DNA of 64,000 nucleotides. Source: a phage. The DNA lies in assembly GCA_019897865.1 (NCBI GenBank), contig GCA_019897865.1_4532.1. One strand, written 5' to 3'. The notes below the pieces were generated by a model. The model did no database searches. It saw only the letters and a list, made by a program, of their open reading frames with translations, and was not told the DNA's origin. The position numbers and the translations under genes are program-made. Below, in pieces: positions 9,701 through 51,293 of the stretch (within the stretch, counting starts at the first letter, position 1; each line of letters begins with the position of its first letter).

Positions 9701-9736
9701 AAGAAAAGGGAACCTTTGCGGGTTCCCTTTTTTATT
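9701..9736. terminator. Bidirectional rho-independent terminator between convergent operons
   Basis: GGGAACC-TTTGCG-GGTTCCC hairpin flanked by A-run upstream and TTTTTTATT downstream; separates + strand SSB from the - strand tail-fiber operon. Confidence 0.65.
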
Positions 9737-12410
9737 AGTCGTAATATTTCAAACCTGTAATGAACTTCGATCCCCAATCCGCACTTGCGGCGGTGAACGT
9801 CAACATCCAAGTTGTAGCTGTACCAGTGAAGACCTCTCGTTGCACAGTACCATCAGTGTGGTAAATGTCCACGCCAGTATGTCCATTCTTAGGAATAGTG
9901 AAGGTAACAGCACTGGTAGTGTCTCGTGCATAAGAACAAACAAATGGTGTCCCCGCCCAAACTGGATTTGTCATATCACCCATCTCAAGCTGTGGAACCC
10001 AAGCAATAAGACCTGCCGTACCATCTCCTGCGAAAGTGTCTGATCCACTTGCATTCAAAGCTATAATCTCATAGGTTATAGATGCTTGTTTGGCAACTGT
10101 CACTTTGTGTAGAATTACACGATACCAACCATTCCCCATATCGATTATGTTTGCATCTGCACCTGTAAATGTTCCAGCTACAAGATCATAAGTCCCTTCG
10201 TTAATCTCATCTCCTGAAGTCAATTTGAGTTTCACTTTAGTGATCCCGTCTGGCTTCAAGAATACGGATGCCGCCCAGTGCTTACCTGCTGTAATATCAG
10301 AAGCTGTATTCACTGCTGATAAAATATGTTGTCCTGAAGTTGTAGAAGGTGTTAACTTGTAAGTGTTAGCCGTAGTTCCAACCGGAGAGTTGATTGTTGA
10401 TGCTGTGACTGTCAAGTTCGTCTTCAACCACGGGGAAGCTGTTGTCAAGTTATTGTTGATAAAGATATGTGTACGGTTGGCTGCTACAACACGTCTACCT
10501 TGTGGAGTTGTACCAACATATTCTAAAGGTGCTACGGGAGCAGAACTCTCTGTAGGTACAAGGATATCTCCAGAAGCCCTGGCATAACGGTTACTCCTAT
10601 TGACCTTTACATCCGTTGGAATAGTTTCTTGCGTCAAATCATAGTCCATCACAATCACCACAGCATTCACTGCGAGATAAGAACTATCTTCGGCAGTTAC
10701 CACACCTTGATAAGTTGCTCTACAACCGATACGACAATCCCCATCAGCAACCGCTGTAATAACGCCTGTAACGGGGTCAACTGTTGCTACCGTAGGGTCA
10801 TTAGAGAAATACTCAACAACCATACCAGGTAAGCTTGCTGCTCCTGTTGGTGTTATTTCTGCTACCATTGTTTGTGTTGTTCCTACATCCATCGCAGATA
10901 AGCTAGGGGTGTAAACGCTCAATGTTGAAGCATATCCTCCAGAGGTATCTGATAAAGTTGTTCCTTCAGCGTTTAAGGCTGTCATACCTGCATCAAAACC
11001 ACCTTCTGCATGGAAAGTCATTAAACCAGTAGATGATATTGTCATGTTTGCAGGGGCAGAAGAAGTGTATTTAATATTGAAAAGTTTACCTCCTTCTGGT
11101 CTAACAGAATGTGTCAACTGTTTAGTTCCACCTACAATACAAATTCCTAAAGAATCTGTAGTTAAGCCAGTTGCCAGAATATCGCCCGTAATCACGGAGC
11201 TTGCTATTGGTGTGAATTTATTATAGTTTAGACCACTATTGAACAGATACGAGGCTTTCCCATCTTTCCAAATACCGGAATAATACATATCTCCATTATA
11301 AACGAAAAAGGTTCCTTGATAACCTAATTGGTTAGTAACATCCATATTCAGCGTATGAACGCTTGTGAGCTTGTTTATATCCCAAGAACCCACTCCTTCA
11401 GGTTTAACTGGTTTTCCCACTTGGAGTGGATCTCCGCTCGCAGAATCATACCCCAAACCTAAGTTTGCAGTGTAGTTCTTACCAATAGCCCACAAGGAAT
11501 TATTGATCCCAACGAAAAAAGAGTGGCGGCTTGGTGGAAACTTCCATGTTGAGAAACCTGCTGCAAAGGTATCCAGTTTAGTGTAGGTTGTTTCTGTATT
11601 AGATCTAACATATAAGTAGTTTACTGTACCCGTGCCACCGGAGGTATCTCCTACAACTATTGTCTGGGAAACTGTATTGATGTAATCTTTGACATACACT
11701 GTTTCAGTAGCGGATATCTTGGCATTGACAAAAGCTGTTGTTGTGTTATTATTACCTGCTAAACCTTTACTAGCTCCACAAACACGCAAGGTTCCCACAT
11801 TGTTGACATAAGAACATTGGTTGTAACCTGCATCAAAAGCAACTGCTGCACTTGTTATCTGACGAGGAGTAGAAACTTCGTTAGTAGTACTTGCACCTAA
11901 ACTACCTACTGTGTTTTGACCTGATCCATAAAGAACACCACTATTCATTAACCAGAGAGTATTGTTATATCCTCCCTTAACCTCTTTAAGATTAGCTAAA
12001 GAGATAGTCCCTGTTATTACAGATGGAAAGCTGGTCCAAGTAGTTACACATGCGTCCGTACCACCTGCTGCTATAGATCCTACCAATCCTGCTGTCAATC
12101 CTGAATATTGCCATCCTCCACTGTTAGTTTTAATAACAAAACAACGATCTGCGGTAAACACATCCGCTACTACAGTAGAAGCTAAGTGGAAATTATTGAA
12201 TCGTGCACTACGAGTTCCATCTGCAATCTCACCAAAAAGGTTTGCGCCTTGAGTAAACAATCTACCATCATTAAGCAAAATTGCTAAACTGCTATTAGAA
12301 TTACCAGCATTATCTGGGTAATCTAAAGTGATTACTTTTTTAACAATACCTGCTGGCAGAGGAACGACACCAGTGCTGGTCATAATAGTAAATATTGGAA
12401 TTGGAAACAT
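9735..12410 (-). CDS. Tail fiber protein with bacterial Ig-like (Big_2-type) domain
   Basis: 891 aa, Gly/Thr/Ser/Asn-rich; segment DPTVATVDPVTGVITAVADGDCRIG... resembles Big_2; last gene of the - strand structural operon. Confidence 0.65.
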   Translation of the reverse strand: MFPIPIFTIMTSTGVVPLPAGIVKKVITLDYPDNAGNSNSSLAILLNDGRLFTQGANLFGEIADGTRSARFNNFHLASTVVADVFTADRCFVIKTNSGGWQYSGLTAGLVGSIAAGGTDACVTTWTSFPSVITGTISLANLKEVKGGYNNTLWLMNSGVLYGSGQNTVGSLGASTTNEVSTPRQITSAAVAFDAGYNQCSYVNNVGTLRVCGASKGLAGNNNTTTAFVNAKISATETVYVKDYINTVSQTIVVGDTSGGTGTVNYLYVRSNTETTYTKLDTFAAGFSTWKFPPSRHSFFVGINNSLWAIGKNYTANLGLGYDSASGDPLQVGKPVKPEGVGSWDINKLTSVHTLNMDVTNQLGYQGTFFVYNGDMYYSGIWKDGKASYLFNSGLNYNKFTPIASSVITGDILATGLTTDSLGICIVGGTKQLTHSVRPEGGKLFNIKYTSSAPANMTISSTGLMTFHAEGGFDAGMTALNAEGTTLSDTSGGYASTLSVYTPSLSAMDVGTTQTMVAEITPTGAASLPGMVVEYFSNDPTVATVDPVTGVITAVADGDCRIGCRATYQGVVTAEDSSYLAVNAVVIVMDYDLTQETIPTDVKVNRSNRYARASGDILVPTESSAPVAPLEYVGTTPQGRRVVAANRTHIFINNNLTTASPWLKTNLTVTASTINSPVGTTANTYKLTPSTTSGQHILSAVNTASDITAGKHWAASVFLKPDGITKVKLKLTSGDEINEGTYDLVAGTFTGADANIIDMGNGWYRVILHKVTVAKQASITYEIIALNASGSDTFAGDGTAGLIAWVPQLEMGDMTNPVWAGTPFVCSYARDTTSAVTFTIPKNGHTGVDIYHTDGTVQREVFTGTATTWMLTFTAASADWGSKFITGLKYYD

Positions 12411-33688: not shown

Positions 33689-35677
33689 TTAACCACCAGT
33701 GTTAGATTGTCCACTTAGAGTTGAAAGAGATAAACGTTGGAAAATGCTATTTCCGCTATTTTGAATTCTTGCATCAAGAATATTTCCAAACTCTGAAGAA
33801 GGGCTGATCGTAACTTTGATAAGATCACTTGGTATTGCTACCGTATTCTCAACAACAGGTTGATTACGAGCCAAACTTACGTTAGGTGTATAGGCTGATT
33901 CACGTAAATCTTCAAGAGGATTACCAAATCCAAAAGCACGTGTCCTTGTTTGTTCTCCTCTCCACATGCGACCAATATCTTGTGTATCAATACCTGTTAA
34001 ATTGTACAACCAATCTGCTACAGGATTGCTGTCTCCACTTTGCGTTGCCTCGTATGCTTTTTGTGCCATAGATTTATTAGGATCTGTGTTGTCTCCGAAT
34101 GTATCTGGGAATGTTTCTTTAAGCCAATTGGTAAAAGATCCGAAACCATCTCCCAATTCTTTAGCAAAACCTCCTAATTGAACTGTTGTCTTACCGAGTT
34201 CTTCACCTAAATCTTTGGCAAACTGATCTAGCACTTTAACGTTATCCAACCAAGAATCATCTTTAGGTAAGGCTTTCACAAAACCCTCTAAGAAGTGGTT
34301 CTGCATACCTTGACCTACAAGCTGAACTGTTGCAGCAAAACGAGTAAACTCTTTAGAAGCATCTATTTGTTCTTGAGTTAATGTTGCACCTGTTCTTTGA
34401 AGCATTTTCAATACTTCATTATACCCTTCGCCGTTTTTACTAAACATACGTTGGTAGTGCATAAGGTCATCACCAAGGTTTTCAAGAAGTCGCCCGATTT
34501 GAGCAGAGTTCATACCTCGACGCTCACCTTCATTAACAGTAGCCTGAATAAAAGCTAAAGGATCGTTCTGTAAAGGTTTAAGCTGTTCTGGATTCCATCC
34601 AAACAAGTTCATAATGTCAGTTATGCCATTATCACCGCCTTTCCACTTCCCTTCTTTCTCATTCCACTTTGCAGCTAAAACGGTATTACCAAGACGTTCA
34701 CGAACGTCTTTAATATTATCTATTGATTTAATAATATTTGCAGAGTCTACACCGTTCTGTTCACCCCAAGCTGTCATTGCCAAAATAGCGTTGGCGTTTG
34801 TCTGAACGTTTTCAGCACCACGACTTACAAGTTTAATTCTTTCGTTAGTATTCATCAACGTGTTACCAACTACAGAACCACCTGCAAACAGCCCAGCACC
34901 TATCAAAGAGGATGCAATCATGCGTGGATTAAGACCTGCTGCACCTTCTTTTAATTGTCCGTATCTACGATCACGATCACGTTTTTGTTGAGCTAATTCA
35001 CGCTTACGGTTGCGTTCTATATCTCTAAGTTCACGATTTCGCATACGTATACGCATTTTAGCTTCTGCTTCTAGCTCTCTACGAATACGGCGACGACCGC
35101 GAACCTCGTCTTCTATTTCAGCATTCTTTTCACGATGAGATCTGCGTAAAGCATCCAACTGGTGAGCAAGAGCTTGGTTCATACGTTGAAGAGTTATTTC
35201 ACCCTTTTTGTATTGCTCTACAGCTTTACCCATAACGTCTCTAGCTTCTTGCATAGCACCAGGACTTGCTTTACTAAATGCTCTTGCTCGGTAGTTAAAG
35301 TTCTGTAAACGAAGATTACCTAAGTCTTCCCTACGTGCTGCTGCTTTAGCTTCTCGTTCAGCCGCTTTACGAGCTTTTTCTTCTTCTCTACCTTGTGGGG
35401 TTTTAGGAGTTCTAGGTCTACCAGAACCACCTACAGGAGCACCCGCTCCAGCGGGAGTAGGTGCTCGCATAGGTTTTTGGCTTTGAGTTTGAGCTTTCTT
35501 AAGTTCACGCTCAATCTCTTTCATTTGTTGTCTAAACTTGGTCATGTTCATAGTGGGTTGCATTTTATTTGCAAACTTCTGAACACTCAACACGGCATCT
35601 TTTGCTTCCTTGAGACTGTTCTTGTCCACCTTAAACGTAACCACGTTACTAATTCTGGAGGCGTTAATTTCTAACAA
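33689..35677 (-). CDS. Tail tape measure protein
   Basis: 662 aa, long charged coiled-coil region (RREDLGNLRLQNFNYRARAF..., Arg/Glu/Lys repeats), located after the chaperone pair. Confidence 0.7.
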   Translation of the reverse strand: MLEINASRISNVVTFKVDKNSLKEAKDAVLSVQKFANKMQPTMNMTKFRQQMKEIERELKKAQTQSQKPMRAPTPAGAGAPVGGSGRPRTPKTPQGREEEKARKAAEREAKAAARREDLGNLRLQNFNYRARAFSKASPGAMQEARDVMGKAVEQYKKGEITLQRMNQALAHQLDALRRSHREKNAEIEDEVRGRRRIRRELEAEAKMRIRMRNRELRDIERNRKRELAQQKRDRDRRYGQLKEGAAGLNPRMIASSLIGAGLFAGGSVVGNTLMNTNERIKLVSRGAENVQTNANAILAMTAWGEQNGVDSANIIKSIDNIKDVRERLGNTVLAAKWNEKEGKWKGGDNGITDIMNLFGWNPEQLKPLQNDPLAFIQATVNEGERRGMNSAQIGRLLENLGDDLMHYQRMFSKNGEGYNEVLKMLQRTGATLTQEQIDASKEFTRFAATVQLVGQGMQNHFLEGFVKALPKDDSWLDNVKVLDQFAKDLGEELGKTTVQLGGFAKELGDGFGSFTNWLKETFPDTFGDNTDPNKSMAQKAYEATQSGDSNPVADWLYNLTGIDTQDIGRMWRGEQTRTRAFGFGNPLEDLRESAYTPNVSLARNQPVVENTVAIPSDLIKVTISPSSEFGNILDARIQNSGNSIFQRLSLSTLSGQSNTGG

Positions 35678-35697: not shown

Positions 35698-35916
35698 TTA
35701 AACAAGTTTCTTAAACAAATCTGACATTTTATTTGTCTGGTTTTGATGTTTTCTCTTTATTGAAGTGTCTTTAACATACATGGCTTCAACATACTCTTCG
35801 TATGTTAAATACTCATATAGTTTTAAAAGATAATCTACACCGTAGTTATCTAATGTTTTCAGTGTTTCCGAGGTATCTTTAACGACTTTGCAAAGAATAA
35901 CCTCATACCACTTCAA
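35698..35916 (-). CDS. Tail assembly chaperone -1 frameshift extension (gpGT-like)
   Basis: -1 frame is open from the slippery site T_TTT_TTC (+ strand 36027-36033) to the stop at 35698; the frameshifted read reaches ...TLKWYEVILCKVVKDTSE... of this ORF without stops. Confidence 0.5.
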   Translation of the reverse strand: MKWYEVILCKVVKDTSETLKTLDNYGVDYLLKLYEYLTYEEYVEAMYVKDTSIKRKHQNQTNKMSDLFKKLV

Positions 35917-35963
35917 AGTAAGGGTTTTCGTTGCTGTGTCGATAGCATGTTCAATCGCAGGTG

Positions 35964-36446
35964 TTAATTTGCTGCTAAACTCGTCATCGCCTGAAGCTGT
36001 GTGAACAGTTTTCCGAAACCTCGTTTGAAAAAAGGGCCGTAGTTTACCTCCAGAACTTTAGCAGTAAGATCTAACACTAGTTCTGGGTGAGCCATAAATA
36101 ATTCATCAAAATTTTCTGCAACGTTATAACCGTCTTGGGTATAAACCTCATCTAAAATTTTACGCAAAAAGACAGTTAAATTCTTTTCTTCCAAACCTGC
36201 AAAAAGTTGGATCAGTGCCATAGCAATACGTGACTCAAGGTCTTCGTCTGCGGACATTGTTGCTGTGCTATACATAGTCATAGGAACAACCAGAACACTA
36301 CCTAATTCTGGAATCCTGTCAAACACTTTAGATGGACTCCACTTCATAATACGGAAAGTAACAGATCTGTTTCCATCTAACGGAATCTCAACTACTTCTT
36401 CTGGTCGAGCATATTTTTGAATTGTGTTATCTTGTTCTTGTGACAT
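35964..36446 (-). CDS. Tail assembly chaperone (gpG-like), upstream frame
   Basis: 160 aa between tail tube and tape measure; ends just after the slippery site. Confidence 0.6.
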   Translation of the reverse strand: MSQEQDNTIQKYARPEEVVEIPLDGNRSVTFRIMKWSPSKVFDRIPELGSVLVVPMTMYSTATMSADEDLESRIAMALIQLFAGLEEKNLTVFLRKILDEVYTQDGYNVAENFDELFMAHPELVLDLTAKVLEVNYGPFFKRGFGKLFTQLQAMTSLAAN

Positions 36447-36456
36447 ATTTTCCTCT

Positions 36457-36481
36457 CTAATGATAAAAAGGGCATTTCTGC
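36457..36481 (-). terminator. Rho-independent terminator after tail tube gene
   Basis: AGGGCA/TGCCCT hairpin; on the - strand followed by TTTTTATC. Confidence 0.55.
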
Positions 36482-36491
36482 CCTTTATTTA

Positions 36492-36971
36492 TTATTGAAT
36501 TGTCAGAGCAGAGATTGAGTTAAGGGTGCTCAAACCTACACCAACTTCATTACGCAGAAGGCTTGCATCTTTAAGACCAATAACCCATTGGTTCTCTGTA
36601 ATCATTTCGCCAATAGTATCTTCAGGCTGACTTTGAATCCATCCAATCGTGCTAATGTAATAGCCACGTGGGTCTTCCAAGTAAACACTGAATGCTACTT
36701 GACGAGTAGAATACATTGTTTGTGCATATGTTGCAAGTACTTCGTTAGCTGGAGATGTGCGTTGCAAAGACATTGTGAGTGTTCCCAAACGGTTACGACT
36801 CAAAGCTAATGAAACGTCCCCATCAGTCCCTGAATAAGGGTTGATAATATCGTTAGATTTAGCAATAACGATTTTAGTATCAGCCGCAAAACCCCACGGT
36901 TCCCAACCACCTAATGAAAGGATAACTTGAGATGGGTCGTAGGCCATTACGCCAGTAAGCATTTTATCCAT
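36492..36971 (-). CDS. Tail tube protein
   Basis: 159 aa directly downstream of the sheath gene, then terminator and chaperone pair. Confidence 0.65.
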   Translation of the reverse strand: MDKMLTGVMAYDPSQVILSLGGWEPWGFAADTKIVIAKSNDIINPYSGTDGDVSLALSRNRLGTLTMSLQRTSPANEVLATYAQTMYSTRQVAFSVYLEDPRGYYISTIGWIQSQPEDTIGEMITENQWVIGLKDASLLRNEVGVGLSTLNSISALTIQ

Positions 36972-37017: not shown

Positions 37018-38391
37018 TTAGTTTGCAGTACGGTTAGTCAGGACGTTGACCTGAACTTTAACGTAATGGAAGAAGCCAGCGTAAACATATTCAATCTTCA
37101 TCCCATCAACCAGACGAGCATTGATTTGCGCATCGGTCATATCGGCACGAGAAGGAATATAAACTATAGGTTTCAGATCGACACGCAAACCAGTCTCTTC
37201 AGAAGTAACAACTTCATTAGCGATGGAACCGTTGAGGATACCTACTTGGATCGGGTTAGCCAGAACAGCTTGTCGAATCAAAGCCAGACCGTTTGAAGTA
37301 GCACGAACACCACCACCCAGCATAGACTGTTGTTTAAACAGTGTAAACAGTGATTCTTCTGTGCGAGCTTTAAACCACAAAGCATGAACAACATAGTCAA
37401 CAAAGAAACCGCTAACCATCAATCCGTCACGATAGAACAGAGTTCCATGCTCTTTACGATAGATGTTACCGTTCTGTTGAACAATATTGTTTTCCGAAGT
37501 CTGATCCAGTTTCTCGATCTCTACACCTACCAGTGTTTTACCGTGAAGAGTAGTCAAACCAGGTTGACGAGAACAGATTGCACCAACAACTGCTGCTTCT
37601 GGGAATACAGAATCTGCATCGGTCATCCACAAAGCAAAGCAAGTGTTATTATAACCGAGGTCATTCAGTCGTTCCAGAACGTTGTCTTCTGCTTTCGTTT
37701 TAATTCCAGGTTCAGAGCTAGAGAAGAAGTAAACTTTATCATTCTCTTCTACCCATGCAGCCAAAGCTAGAACATCTTCTGTTTCATGGGAATCTGAAAG
37801 GGTCCAGAACCAGCTACTATCAATATCATGCAGAGCAGCAATATCTTCCGTAATAGCATTAGCATAGACAGTTTCTTGAGTGAAACCTGTGCTGTCAATA
37901 GAACCAAACTTACCTTCTACTGGAGTGAAAGTCATTGCAGCGCCGTTGTTAGCTACTGTAAACAGTGGGCCATAAACAAGATCTGCATTGATCATTTCAG
38001 TCAGACCAACTACAATCTCTTGTGCAGTTGCAGTGTCATCAGCAATGAATTTAAATTCTTTTTTCTTGGTACCATTTTTGATGGTAATTGTGTAAGTTGC
38101 ACTATCTTCTACGATTGGAGTTAGAGTAAAGTTTGTAACTTCACGCTTACCAACCATGACTTGATCTGGTGGGAACAAACCATTAAACAGTTTGACTGCC
38201 ATAATATACGCTGGATCATTTAATCCATAACCTGCTTCCAAAAGTGCATCGGAAGAAGAGTAATATTGAATCGCTTCGCCAGTTACGTTCTGACCTGTAA
38301 GGATCAGGGGAATATCGAACTGGGTTTCACGAATTGATGTAGCACCATACAGTAAAGTTACGGTTGCTACCTTTTCACGAAAAGTTGCCAT
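37018..38391 (-). CDS. Tail sheath protein
   Basis: 457 aa; sheath-tube-chaperone-tape measure order diagnostic of contractile tails. Confidence 0.75.
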   Translation of the reverse strand: MATFREKVATVTLLYGATSIRETQFDIPLILTGQNVTGEAIQYYSSSDALLEAGYGLNDPAYIMAVKLFNGLFPPDQVMVGKREVTNFTLTPIVEDSATYTITIKNGTKKKEFKFIADDTATAQEIVVGLTEMINADLVYGPLFTVANNGAAMTFTPVEGKFGSIDSTGFTQETVYANAITEDIAALHDIDSSWFWTLSDSHETEDVLALAAWVEENDKVYFFSSSEPGIKTKAEDNVLERLNDLGYNNTCFALWMTDADSVFPEAAVVGAICSRQPGLTTLHGKTLVGVEIEKLDQTSENNIVQQNGNIYRKEHGTLFYRDGLMVSGFFVDYVVHALWFKARTEESLFTLFKQQSMLGGGVRATSNGLALIRQAVLANPIQVGILNGSIANEVVTSEETGLRVDLKPIVYIPSRADMTDAQINARLVDGMKIEYVYAGFFHYVKVQVNVLTNRTAN

Positions 38392-49369: not shown

Positions 49370-49448
49370 TGGAGGCGGGAATTGGATTTGAACCAATGAT
49401 CTCCAGCATATGAAACTGGCGAGGACGACCAAACTCCTCTATCCCGCT
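49370..49448 (-). tRNA. tRNA-Met (anticodon CAT); initiator/elongator/Ile-lysidine not resolved
   Basis: Hand-folded cloverleaf: T-arm ATTGG-TTCAAAT-CCAAT, anticodon loop TTCATAT, encoded CCA; A1-C72 mismatch at acceptor top. Confidence 0.6.
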
Positions 49449-49454
49449 ATTATG

Positions 49455-49526
49455 TATCCCGTGCTGGATTCGAACCAGCGTCACAAGAAATTGTGGATCT
49501 CTTATCCTGTAAGTCTAACGGGAAAC
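49455..49526 (-). ncRNA. tRNA-like element (canonical T-arm and acceptor, no canonical anticodon arm)
   Basis: T-arm GCTGG-TTCGAAT-CCAGC and near-complementary acceptor strands, but the central region forms CACAA-TTTC-TTGTG instead of a 5-bp/7-nt anticodon arm. Confidence 0.3.
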
Positions 49527-49600
49527 TGGTTGTTTCGACAAGAATCGAACTTGTGTCTCACGATTATCAGTCGTGGGTTCTACCATTGAACTACGAAACA
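49527..49600 (-). tRNA. tRNA-Ile (anticodon GAT)
   Basis: Perfect cloverleaf: acceptor TGTTTCG/CGAAACA, D GTTC/GAAC, anticodon stem CACGA/TCGTG with loop CTGATAA, T-arm ACAAG-TTCGATT-CTTGT, encoded CCA. Confidence 0.75.
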
Positions 49601-49606
49601 TTTAAT

Positions 49607-49683
49607 TGGTCGGAATTGCAGGATTCGAACCTGCGACCCTACGCTCCCAAAGCGTATGCTCTACCAAACTGAGCTAAATTCCG
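49607..49683 (-). tRNA. tRNA-Pro (anticodon TGG)
   Basis: Acceptor CGGAATT/AATTCCG, D GCTC/GAGC, anticodon stem TACGC/GCGTA with loop TTTGGGA, T-arm GCAGG-TTCGAAT-CCTGC, CCA. Confidence 0.75.
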
Positions 49684-49688
49684 TTATA

Positions 49689-49764
49689 TGGCTGGTCTGT
49701 CTGGATTTGAACCAAACCTACGACAGTCAAAGTGTCGTGTGCTACCGGACTACACTACAAACCA
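49689..49764 (-). tRNA. tRNA-Gln (anticodon TTG)
   Basis: Acceptor TGGTTTG/CAGACCA (U1-A72, G73), anticodon stem CGACA/TGTCG with loop CTTTGAC, T-arm TTTGG-TTCAAAT-CCAGA, CCA. Confidence 0.7.
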
Positions 49765-49862
49765 ATAAATCATTTAATGAAGGGCAACCAGAAGAGGTGT
49801 GAGAGAAGGAGAAAACCATGAGTAAAAGAGAAAGTTTTCTGGCAACCCTTTATTAAATAATT

Positions 49863-49936
49863 TGGAGCGTTCTACGAGGATCGAACTCGTGCCGCCGACT
49901 TGGAAGGACGGAATGCTACCGCTACACCAAGAACGC
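49863..49936 (-). tRNA. tRNA-Gly (anticodon TCC)
   Basis: Acceptor GCGTTCT/AGAACGC, anticodon loop CTTCCAA, T-arm ACGAG-TTCGATC-CTCGT, discriminator U, CCA; one mismatch in anticodon stem. Confidence 0.65.
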
Positions 49937-49947
49937 CCTACATCTTT

Positions 49948-49977
49948 ACTATACTACATTTTACTATTGATTGTCAA
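49948..49977 (-). promoter_or_regulatory. Promoter (CTATTGACAA family) for downstream tRNA block
   Basis: - strand CTATTGACAA with TTGACA at 49977..49972, about 18-bp spacer, TATAGT; ends about 12 nt before tRNA-Gly. Confidence 0.5.
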
Positions 49978-50250
49978 TAGTTTTATTGAGTGGGACAGTG
50001 ACGAGTATCCCATTGGGTGACTAGCCCTACGTTCGGTAAGCTAACTTAAAATAATACAAAACCAAAGTCAAATATTATTCTTCGTTGCTGTCGATGGGAG
50101 AGCCGCTTCTTCTTTTGCCCCATCCAACCCTACTCCGGTCAAGTTTCAGGTAACTCTTTTTGTGATCAACACAATACTAAGAACACTGTCTTTCGAACAG
50201 ACCTTGTGCACAGGATACGACGATCAATCACAGTGCCCTTAATGTTGTGT

Positions 50251-50325
50251 TGGTGCTCCCACTCTGAATCGAACAGAGATCCACGGATTACAAAACCGTT
50301 GTAATAGCCATTATACTATAGGAGC
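50251..50325 (-). tRNA. tRNA-Thr (anticodon TGT)
   Basis: Acceptor GCTCCTA/TGGGAGC, anticodon loop TTTGTAA, T-arm CTCTG-TTCGATT-CAGAG, A73, CCA; loop-closing pair mismatched. Confidence 0.6.
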
Positions 50326-50331
50326 AAAGCT

Positions 50332-50408
50332 GGGACTCGGCAGGATTCGATACCTGCAATTCCAGAAGCCTCTTGGCGACTGGGGGTTTACCTTAACTCT
50401 ACAAGTCC
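50332..50408 (-). ncRNA. tRNA-like element with extended central hairpin in place of the anticodon arm
   Basis: Good acceptor (GGACTTG/CGAGTCC) and T-arm-like GCAGG...CCTGC (8-nt loop), but middle forms CCAGTCGCC-AAGA-GGCTTCTGG; no CCA. Confidence 0.3.
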
Positions 50409-50415
50409 ATAATTC

Positions 50416-50501
50416 TGGCGATGAGTATAGGATTTGAACCTATATCGTTCTTTCGAACACGGATTAACAGTCCGCCGCTTAAACCATTCAGCCAACTCAT
50501 C
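50416..50501 (-). tRNA. Class II (long variable arm) tRNA with anticodon GTT (Asn codons)
   Basis: 86 nt: acceptor GATGAGT/ACTCATC, 3-bp D stem, anticodon stem GCGGA/TCCGT with loop CTGTTAA, variable arm GTTC-GAAA-GAAC, T-arm ATAGG-TTCAAAT-CCTAT, G73, CCA. Confidence 0.55.
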
Positions 50502-50507
50502 TTAATT

Positions 50508-50595
50508 TGGTGGTGAGTGATGGAGTCGAACCACCCGAATCGCAATGATAACAGATTTACAGTCTGCCCCGCTACCCCTACGGAATTAACTCACC
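50508..50595 (-). tRNA. tRNA-Tyr (anticodon GTA), class II
   Basis: 88 nt: acceptor GGTGAGT/ACTCACC, anticodon stem GCAGA/TCTGT with loop CTGTAAA, long variable region, T-arm GGTGG-TTCGACT-CCATC, A73, CCA. Confidence 0.65.
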
Positions 50596-50725
50596 TAAAT
50601 ACTAATATTTAAATTCTTTTTAAAATAGCCAGTGTTCACACCACTAACTATGATTTATCGGTAAGATGGTGGGGGCCATCTGCCGAAAGTTTACTCTATT
50701 AAAGTAAGCCATATTAAAAAGAACT

Positions 50726-50811
50726 TGGCGGTAGATGTAGGACTCGAACCTACACGCCGTTTCCGACTACAGTTTAGCAAACTGTCGTGGCTACCATTTC
50801 ACCAATCTACC
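50726..50811 (-). tRNA. tRNA-Ser (anticodon GCT), class II
   Basis: 86 nt: acceptor GGTAGAT/ATCTACC, anticodon stem ACAGT/ACTGT with loop TTGCTAA, variable arm GTCG-GAAA-CGGC, T-arm GTAGG-TTCGAGT-CCTAC, G73, CCA. Confidence 0.7.
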
Positions 50812-50816
50812 TAATC

Positions 50817-50907
50817 TGGCGGAAGGAGGGAGAGTCGAACTCCCAAGGCTCTTTCAAGCTCGGCGGTTTTCAAGACCGTTTTCGTCGCCACGTCGATTTG
50901 CCCTTCC
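50817..50907 (-). tRNA. tRNA-Ser (anticodon TGA), class II
   Basis: About 91 nt: acceptor GGAAGGG/TCCTTCC, anticodon loop CTTGAAA, variable arm GCTT-GAAA-GAGC, T-arm GGGAG-TTCGACT-CTCCC, G73, CCA. Confidence 0.65.
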
Positions 50908-50911
50908 ATAC

Positions 50912-50945
50912 TTATAATCTAACATAAAATAATGTTTGTTGTCAA
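50912..50945 (-). promoter_or_regulatory. Promoter (CTATTGACAA family) for the tRNA-Ser block
   Basis: - strand CTATTGACAA (TTGACA 50945..50940), 18-bp spacer ...AAACATTATTTTATGT, TAGATT, then tRNA-Ser about 9 nt downstream. Confidence 0.5.
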
Positions 50946-51141
50946 TAGTTTTTTAAAACATTTTACCATGAATGGTGACTCCACCAACCCCCGTTCTCCA
51001 CGAACGGTGCTCTTCGAGCATTTATGTCTTCTAATATAACCGTGGCCTTTGTTTATAATGTCTGACATATTTGCCTCATTCTCTGCCACCATGATCAGTA
51101 GTGGGTTCAAATCACTTGAGCTAATTCATGTTAAAATGTTC

Positions 51142-51216
51142 TGGTGTCTTTACAAGGAATCGAACCTTGACTAAGAGTTTAGAAGACTCCTGTGCTATCC
51201 ATTACACCATAAAGAC
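51142..51216 (-). tRNA. tRNA-Arg (anticodon TCT)
   Basis: Acceptor GTCTTTA/TAAAGAC, D GTGT/GCAC, anticodon stem GGAGT/ACTCT with loop CTTCTAA, T-arm CAAGG-TTCGATT-CCTTG, CCA. Confidence 0.7.
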
Positions 51217-51218
51217 TT

Positions 51219-51293
51219 TGGTGGCCCTGGCTGGTTTCGATCCAGCTACCTATCGGTTATGAGCCGACAGCTCTCCCATTGAGCTACAGGGCC
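51219..51293 (-). tRNA. tRNA-Met (anticodon CAT), elongator-type; unusual T-loop ATCGAAA
   Basis: Acceptor GGCCCTG/CAGGGCC, D GCTC/GAGC, anticodon stem GTCGG/CCGAT with loop CTCATAA, T-arm GCTGG-ATCGAAA-CCAGC, A73, CCA. Confidence 0.65.

Follow-up and report, generated by a model that had tools for sequence, protein, structure and literature searches.

A probable programmed −1 ribosomal frameshift in the genes for tail assembly chaperones of an Escherichia coli phage of the genus Phapecoctavirus

Reading frames and slippery heptamers at the chaperone locus

The locus at positions 35,698 to 36,446 of a 64,000 nt stretch of phage DNA (GenBank assembly GCA_019897865.1, contig GCA_019897865.1_4532.1; the whole stretch is referred to below as the window) carries a pair of overlapping reading frames in a tail gene cluster, and appears to specify two chaperone isoforms. 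By sequence, the window belongs to an E. coli phage of the genus Phapecoctavirus, subfamily Stephanstirmvirinae, in the phAPEC8/phi92 group. The genes of the cluster lie on the minus strand, in the order sheath, tube, G, a 72-aa open reading frame (ORF) designated T, and tape measure. G (35964–36446, 160 aa) is the ORF described in the initial annotation as a tail assembly chaperone, an assignment borne out by matches to PF21822 'Phage_TAC_15' (E 1.3e-23) and phrog_3840 'tail assembly chaperone' (E 2.8e-55). It begins with an ATG at 36446, preceded by a Shine–Dalgarno (SD) sequence, GAGGA, at 36455–36451, and ends with a TAA at 35966–35964. The 18.2 kDa protein includes the sequence VLEVNYGPFFKRGFGK. 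The 72-aa ORF (35698–35916, minus strand) has a TTG start and matches phrog_16039, a family of unknown function.

The heptamer T_TTT_TTC (U_UUU_UUC in the mRNA; 36027–36033, minus strand) lies 20 codons ahead of the stop codon of G. Within the G ORF, TTTTTTC has the start index 413 (413 mod 3 = 2), which is the X_XXY_YYZ phase, and the codons read in the 0 frame are CCT TTT TTC, within the peptide GPFFK; both the coordinates and the phase are as first annotated. The −1 frame is closed by a TAA at 36060–36058, eight codons 5′ of the heptamer; from 36057 onwards it has no stop until the TAA at 35700–35698. The earlier observation that it runs from the slip site through the 72-aa ORF to 35698 was likewise correct, and no intervening stop was found. 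The T segment (35698–36027, minus strand), read in the −1 frame from the final C of the heptamer, where base 36027 is read twice, comprises 109 codons followed by the TAA at 35700–35698. When joined to 36446–36027 it gives a predicted fusion, GT, of 249 aa and 28.8 kDa with the junction VLEVNYGPFF/QTRFRK, and phrog_16039 matches residues 178–249 of this fusion (E 5e-44). The tryptic peptide predicted to span the GT junction is VLEVNYGPFFQTR, and its counterpart in G is VLEVNYGPFFK.

A second in-phase heptamer, C_CCT_TTT (36030–36036, minus strand), was not mentioned in the initial annotation. It overlaps the first, forming the sequence CCCTTTTTTC, and a slip at either heptamer would produce an identical protein (...GPFFQTR...). 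A double slip (−2) on this decamer was considered and rejected, as it would lead to a stop after about 16 codons.

The 57 ORFs of the window provide about 18,000 in-phase codon positions, among which there are 78 heptamers of the X_XXY_YYZ form. In 54 of these Y is A or T, a density of 0.003 per codon, so that about 0.09 such heptamers would be expected by chance in the 30-codon overlap. T_TTT_TTC itself occurs in phase only twice in the window. The −1 extension that follows the site in G is 109 codons long, and those following all other in-phase heptamers of the window do not exceed 27 codons, making the G site a four-fold outlier. Chance is not a credible explanation for the site. The other in-phase T_TTT_TTC (11514–11520, minus strand, within the ORF at 9735–12410) has no long −1 extension and is presumably incidental.

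Conservation of the site and the point of frame change

The corresponding loci of related phages were compared, comprising 16 annotated loci from GenBank, 44 from IMG/VR, and those of Aeromonas phage 4L372D and Rheinheimera phage Barba30A. The GenBank set spans Stephanstirmvirinae, five genera of Vequintavirinae and one Vibrio phage (S4-7), and the G proteins of the compared relatives are as little as ~28% identical to that of the window. In-phase T_TTT_TTC is found at the homologous N-Y-G-[C/P/S]-F-F position in every locus except those of Vibrio phage S4-7 and Rheinheimera phage Barba30A, and is kept in the Aeromonas phage, which belongs to the genus Plateaulakevirus. In phage S4-7 the place of the F-F codons is taken by A_AAT_TTT, and Barba30A carries the lambda-type heptamer G_GGA_AAG a few codons away from the homologous position (L062, 1230–1236).

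Codon usage at the site was counted in an alignment of 37 unique relatives from two subfamilies, Stephanstirmvirinae and Vequintavirinae. The motif NNT TTT TTC shows no synonymous variation in any of the 37, the first codon being TGT (23/23) or CCT (14/14), the second TTT (37/37) and the third TTC (37/37). Nearby conserved codons do vary, such as those of the invariant Phe117 (TTT in 11, TTC in 26), of Tyr136 (TAC in 27, TAT in 10), and of Leu127, for which six codons are used (n = 37). When the chaperone genes of phAPEC8-like and phi92-like phages were compared by megablast, a similarity of 86–88% was found only around 36004–36098, within about 50 nt of the slip site in each direction. Over the surrounding 1 kb the identity is ~75%, and a local peak of this kind is consistent with dual coding combined with a recoding signal.

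The −1 frame is maintained in the same loci. Past the G stop it remains open for 82–92 codons in the complete loci of the 37-relative set, for 82–98 codons in all complete loci with T_TTT_TTC (GenBank, IMG/VR and 4L372D), and for 72–98 codons in all 61 complete loci examined, and the predicted GT proteins of full-length relatives are 244–258 aa in length. These comparisons, which are decisive for the argument, indicate that the site and its open −1 frame have been kept in divergent relatives beyond what coding would need.

The position of the frame change can be delimited from both sides. The −1 frame meets a TAA four codons 5′ of the heptamer in rV5-like phages and a stop one codon 5′ of it in Aeromonas phage 4L372D, while an R-F-R motif in the −1 frame, 2–3 codons 3′ of the heptamer, is conserved across both main subfamilies. 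With stops just 5′ and a conserved motif just 3′, the shift must happen at the heptamer, and the alignments confine the frame change to a few codons in which this slippery site is the sole one. The invariant GGTTTCG immediately 3′ of the heptamer was considered as an RNA motif and discarded, since it is accounted for by dual coding, specifying G-F when read in the 0 frame and R-F-R when read in the −1 frame.

Two sequence elements near the heptamer could influence slippage. The first is an internal SD-like sequence, GGAGG (36047–36051, minus strand), situated 13 nt 5′ of T_TTT_TTC and 10 nt 5′ of C_CCT_TTT. GGAGG, GAGG or GGAG is present 13–14 nt upstream in 27 of the 37 unique relatives. Glu133 is encoded by GAG in 26/31 sequences, though GAA outnumbers GAG by 221 to 84 in 11 sampled genes of the window; the element also encodes a conserved Leu-Glu-Val. 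It may be an upstream stimulator of the dnaX style. The second is C_CCT_TTT, present in the 14 unique sequences with Pro138, all of which use CCT (14/14); CCT and CCA are equally common in the 11 window genes. The codon before CCT always ends in C, and the amino acid it encodes varies (G/A/S). Vequintavirinae have TGT at this position and lack C_CCT_TTT, which is therefore not essential. The overlapping C_CCU_UUU and the SD-like GGAGG may raise the efficiency of slippage. All-pyrimidine heptamers of the form X_XXU_UUY are among the frameshift-prone classes of E. coli (PMC4066793).

Frameshifting and alternative explanations

The G/T pair is very probably expressed through a programmed −1 ribosomal frameshift at U_UUU_UUC. 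This was the reading proposed in the initial annotation, as a frameshift of the gpG/gpGT type, and the present analysis supports it, every computational expectation having been borne out. From the sequences compared we infer that the slippage is ribosomal in nature. Most ribosomes would make G, the 18 kDa protein of 160 aa, and stop at 35966–35964. A minority would slip with tRNA-Phe on UUU in the P site and on UUC in the A site, moving one base back and re-pairing with UUU UUU, and would then read 109 more codons in the −1 frame to give GT, of 249 aa and 28.8 kDa. By analogy with lambda gpG/gpGT and with E/E+E′ of phage P2, G would form a coat on the tape measure protein together with the G part of GT, and recruitment of the tube protein would fall to the T domain. 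On the same analogy, tails would assemble correctly only at a fixed G:GT ratio, itself set by the frequency of slippage, and the virion would contain neither of the two proteins.

Structure predictions were made for both parts of the fusion. The AlphaFold2 (AF2) model of G has a predicted local distance difference test score (pLDDT) of 77 and a predicted template modelling score (pTM) of 0.73, and a Foldseek search of the PDB with this model gave no hit. The model of T alone is weak and all-helical (pLDDT 72.8, pTM 0.41; the other four models 51–57). A sequence search of the PDB returned 5ir0 as its sole match, which is marginal (E 0.089).

Several observations weigh against a ribosomal frameshift at this site. 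A 3′ stimulatory structure was not found: the 87 nt downstream of the heptamer fold like shuffled sequences (minimum free energy (MFE) z = −0.05), nothing was found in the MFE of the downstream RNA of individual phages, and alifold analysis of two clades detected no covarying helix (in one clade −1.2 kcal/mol and 0 covarying pairs, in the other no structure). The sole helix, of −1.2 kcal/mol and lacking covariation, forms between GGAAAA and the U-run itself. The stable hairpin or pseudoknot 5–9 nt 3′ of the heptamer that characterises sites of the dnaX/IS911 type was not detected. The upstream SD-like element is absent in 9 of the 37 relatives, and is therefore not required. One of the two peptide patterns used for IMG/VR contains 'FF', which biases that set to Phe-Phe, though not to specific codons; the GenBank loci are free of this bias. 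Records of the relatives that were inspected annotate two coding sequences (CDS), and none has a joined CDS. A search of 5.8 billion protein clusters with the 249-aa fusion gave no fusion-length protein among its hits, the matches being 158–175 aa in length and covering the G part. Finally, the T6 homopolymer seen in 37/37 relatives is equally predicted by transcriptional slippage, in which RNA polymerase would stutter on T6 and add one U to the mRNA. A single inserted U would lead to the same protein (...PFFQTR...), so that protein sequence cannot discriminate between the two.

Lambda G/GT, in work ascribed to Levin et al. in 1993, is said to need no strong 3′ stimulator. The lack of such a stimulator here would also accord with stuttering of the polymerase, yet the composition of the site points away from it. 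Useful runs for slippage by bacterial RNA polymerase are typically of about 8–9 or more residues, and T6 is shorter than this. The seventh base is C in 37/37 relatives, although UUU would extend the run, and the −1-frame residue begun by that base varies (Q/H/R). In the Rheinheimera and Vibrio loci, G_GGA_AAG and A_AAT_TTT are ribosomal slippery heptamers and not homopolymers; turnover from one heptamer to another is expected for slippage by the ribosome and not by RNA polymerase, and so favours the ribosome. Transcriptional slippage is, in our estimate, a very unlikely source of GT.

An explanation by two independent genes, in which the 72-aa ORF (35916–35698) is translated from its own TTG and the heptamer is incidental, agrees with public annotation and with the existence of the TTG-start ORF, and phrog_16039 groups stand-alone ORFs of this kind. 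The start of T is, however, not convincing. No ATG, GTG or TTG occurs in the −1 frame 5′ of the TTG at 35916 in the window, and no SD-like sequence was found before this TTG. Among relatives, the candidate starts of T are conserved neither in position nor in codon, and the first one is in some cases only 43 codons before the stop, as in phage KpS8, where it leaves only 43 aa. In phages ESCO13 and phi92, ribosome-binding sites are annotated for the neighbouring genes and none for T, and the stand-alone T ORFs called in databases have ragged N-termini; a query with T returned such ORFs only, of 64–85 aa.

From the stop of G to the first possible start codon there is a formally intergenic stretch (35917–35963, minus strand), whose residues in the −1 frame, LTPAIEHAIDTA..., are conserved across relatives. 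Since there is no start upstream, it would be translated only by ribosomes already in the −1 frame. Substitutions in this stretch number 65, 41 and 110 at −1-frame codon positions 1, 2 and 3, respectively, the same signature as in the rest of T (311, 195 and 457), indicating that it evolves in the manner of DNA translated in the −1 frame, and −1-frame constraint is also detected in the overlap with G. The −1-frame product can be aligned in all relatives from the junction (FFQTRFRK or FFHERRFRR) through a conserved C-terminal domain. An incidental heptamer would also leave unexplained its lack of synonymous variation and the outlying length of its −1 extension within the window. These data argue that T is not an independent gene, and we regard expression as two genes as highly improbable. 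That the downstream frame is the decaying remnant of a gene, with only G being made, has a negligible probability and is effectively refuted by the comparative data, as the −1 frame is open 72–98 codons past the G stop in 61/61 complete loci and the T product is conserved, at identities down to ~30%, with a coding pattern of substitution.

Within the interpretation as a ribosomal frameshift, the site could be conceived as a distinct, compact cassette consisting of a 5′ GGAGG and the decamer C_CCU_UUU_UUC with its two overlapping slippery sites, and operating with no structure on the 3′ side. The 5′ element and the tandem sites would adjust how efficiently it works, and its U_UUU_UUC core would be frozen in at least three lineages of myoviruses (Stephanstirmvirinae, Vequintavirinae and Plateaulakevirus) and swapped for other heptamers in Barbavirus and a Vibrio phage. 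We consider this more specific proposal rather unlikely.

Related systems, annotation and the surrounding tail module

The G/GT arrangement corresponds to that described by Xu, Hendrix and Duda (2004) and reviewed in PMC5009743. Its hallmarks are seen here: overlapping ORFs between tube and tape measure genes, a −1 frame with no credible start, an in-phase heptamer, conservation, and membership of G in a chaperone family. The closest experimentally studied analogue is the E/E+E′ pair of phage P2, for which PMC3091744 (citing Christie et al. 2002) describes a −1 frameshift at T_TTT_TTG and no downstream hairpin. The two share a contractile tail, the location of the pair between tube and tape measure genes, a slippery site of U6 and one further base close to where the shorter ORF ends, the lack of a downstream hairpin and an extension in the −1 frame. 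They differ in the last base of the heptamer, which is G in P2 and C here, and in the length of the shorter protein, E having 91 aa and G 160 aa. The overlapping C_CCU_UUU and the upstream GGAGG are additional in the present phage; sequence similarity to P2 was neither sought nor found. Lambda gpG/gpGT (Levin 1993; Xu, Hendrix and Duda 2004, 2013, 2014; reviewed in PMC5009743) is similar in gene position, in the logic of the −1 shift, in having short and long products and in the roles inferred for them, and differs in that lambda is a siphovirus, uses the heptamer G_GGA_AAG and has a G protein of another family. The lambda heptamer has been converged on by the Rheinheimera relative of the present chaperone family.

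The dnaX gene of E. coli combines the heptamer A_AAA_AAG with an upstream SD sequence and a downstream hairpin. The phage locus resembles it in having an internal SD-like sequence 10–14 nt 5′ of the slippery site. It is unlike dnaX, where frameshifting gives a truncated product and a downstream hairpin is present: here there is no hairpin, the product is an extension and the SD-like element is not universal.

Frameshifting at a conserved GTTTTT has been proposed for Felix O1-like phages (Andersonviridae, e.g., Moogle) and for Pakpunavirus (Vandenendeviridae) (PMC4319497, PMC12846349). The more recent of these papers (PMC12846349, 2025) describes the clades as evolutionarily related to Vequintavirinae and the downstream ORF as routinely mis-annotated as a separate gene. 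The mis-annotated 'hypothetical' downstream ORF is a point of likeness with the present locus; the publications do not include Stephanstirmvirinae. Neither clade was among the sampled hits of tblastn searches with G and with the G protein of rV5. In the literature, no report of a frameshift was found for Phapecoctavirus, phi92-like or rV5-like phages.

In the 18 annotated GenBank records inspected, of phAPEC8-, phi92- and rV5-like phages and their relatives, T is given as a separate 'hypothetical protein' with an arbitrary start, or is left unannotated, as in Erwinia phage Hena1. The RefSeq entry of Hena1 shows a gap of 325 nt between the chaperone and tape measure genes (L009, 1354–1678), in which the −1 frame is open and conserved. 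The locus is present at the nucleotide level in ~130 records, and the main value of the result lies in their annotation: T should be entered as a ribosomal_slippage join that specifies a chaperone isoform of 249 aa. A correct set of tail assembly genes would be useful, as this widely isolated group includes several candidates for phage therapy or biocontrol, as well as the structural model phi92. The frameshift is of a well-known kind; it introduces no new biological principle and would not surprise a specialist. The invariant UUUUUUC, together with its turnover to G_GGA_AAG or A_AAU_UUU, offers a clear case in nature of a recoding signal under selection.

The assignment of the window to Phapecoctavirus comes from a 1-kb region at the locus that is 100% identical to Escherichia phage vB_EcoM_ESCO25 (1,001 bases compared) and shares at least 99.3% identity with each of the other phAPEC8-like records listed; at 99% identity or above there are 65 records in total. 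Identity of the same region to phi92-like phages (Justusliebigvirus) is ~75%.

The initial annotation had placed the chaperone pair between the tail tube and tape measure genes, and its neighbours are indeed of these types. The 5′ neighbour of G (36492–36971, minus strand, 159 aa) matches phrog_280 (E 3e-35), and also PF11681 KPP10_Orf10 (E 3e-5), slightly under the cut-off of that family; its homologue in Klebsiella phage 05F01 is labelled 'potential tail tube' in GenBank. The 3′ neighbour (33689–35677, minus strand, 662 aa, TTG start) matches phrog_16051 'tail length tape measure protein' with 1246 bits, a label also carried by its homologues in the GenBank annotations of ESCO13 and phi92. 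The gene for the tail sheath (37018–38391, minus strand, 457 aa) matches phrog_205 'tail sheath' (E 3e-100) and PF11863 (E 7e-20). Genes of baseplate type come after the tape measure gene, encoding Dit-like, Pam3 gp18-like plug and E217 gp41-like hub proteins. This gene content identifies the region as a tail module from a phage with a contractile tail.

A terminator-like hairpin, AAAGGGCAGAAATGCCCTTT, with a T-rich tail (36467–36486, minus strand) lies in the 45 nt that separate the tube gene from G, and is marked as a putative terminator in the annotation of phAPEC8. By attenuation, it may make transcription weaker for G/GT and the tape measure gene than for the tube gene, so that less chaperone and tape measure protein would be produced than tube protein. 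The organisation differs in Rheinheimera phage Barba30A, where the gene after the T ORF (1532–2170) is on the opposite strand and is annotated as a 'putative DNA binding protein', so that T and the tape measure gene are not neighbours.

A cluster of ten tRNA genes was detected by ARAGORN at 49370–51293 (minus strand), specifying Met (two genes), Ile, Pro, Gln, Gly, Thr, Asn, Ser and Arg. A search against Rfam gave an eleventh tRNA-like match (50511–50595, 39 bits) that was not called by ARAGORN. As the cluster contains no tRNA-Phe, slippage at the heptamer would depend on the tRNA-Phe of the host. In phi92 (NC_023693), a 'Hypothetical tRNA' is annotated at 66790–66882 (L002, 2113–2205), inside the sheath CDS, and is probably a false prediction.

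Many GenBank records named 'Campylobacter phage' (MG0656xx; A145, A110a, C11, C7, C2, A13b and others) have a chaperone locus that is phi92-like or rV5-like. The chaperone protein of rV5 matches such records at 98–100%, and their scores with the window as query equal those of phi92-like phages. The 'Campylobacter' host label of these records looks doubtful.

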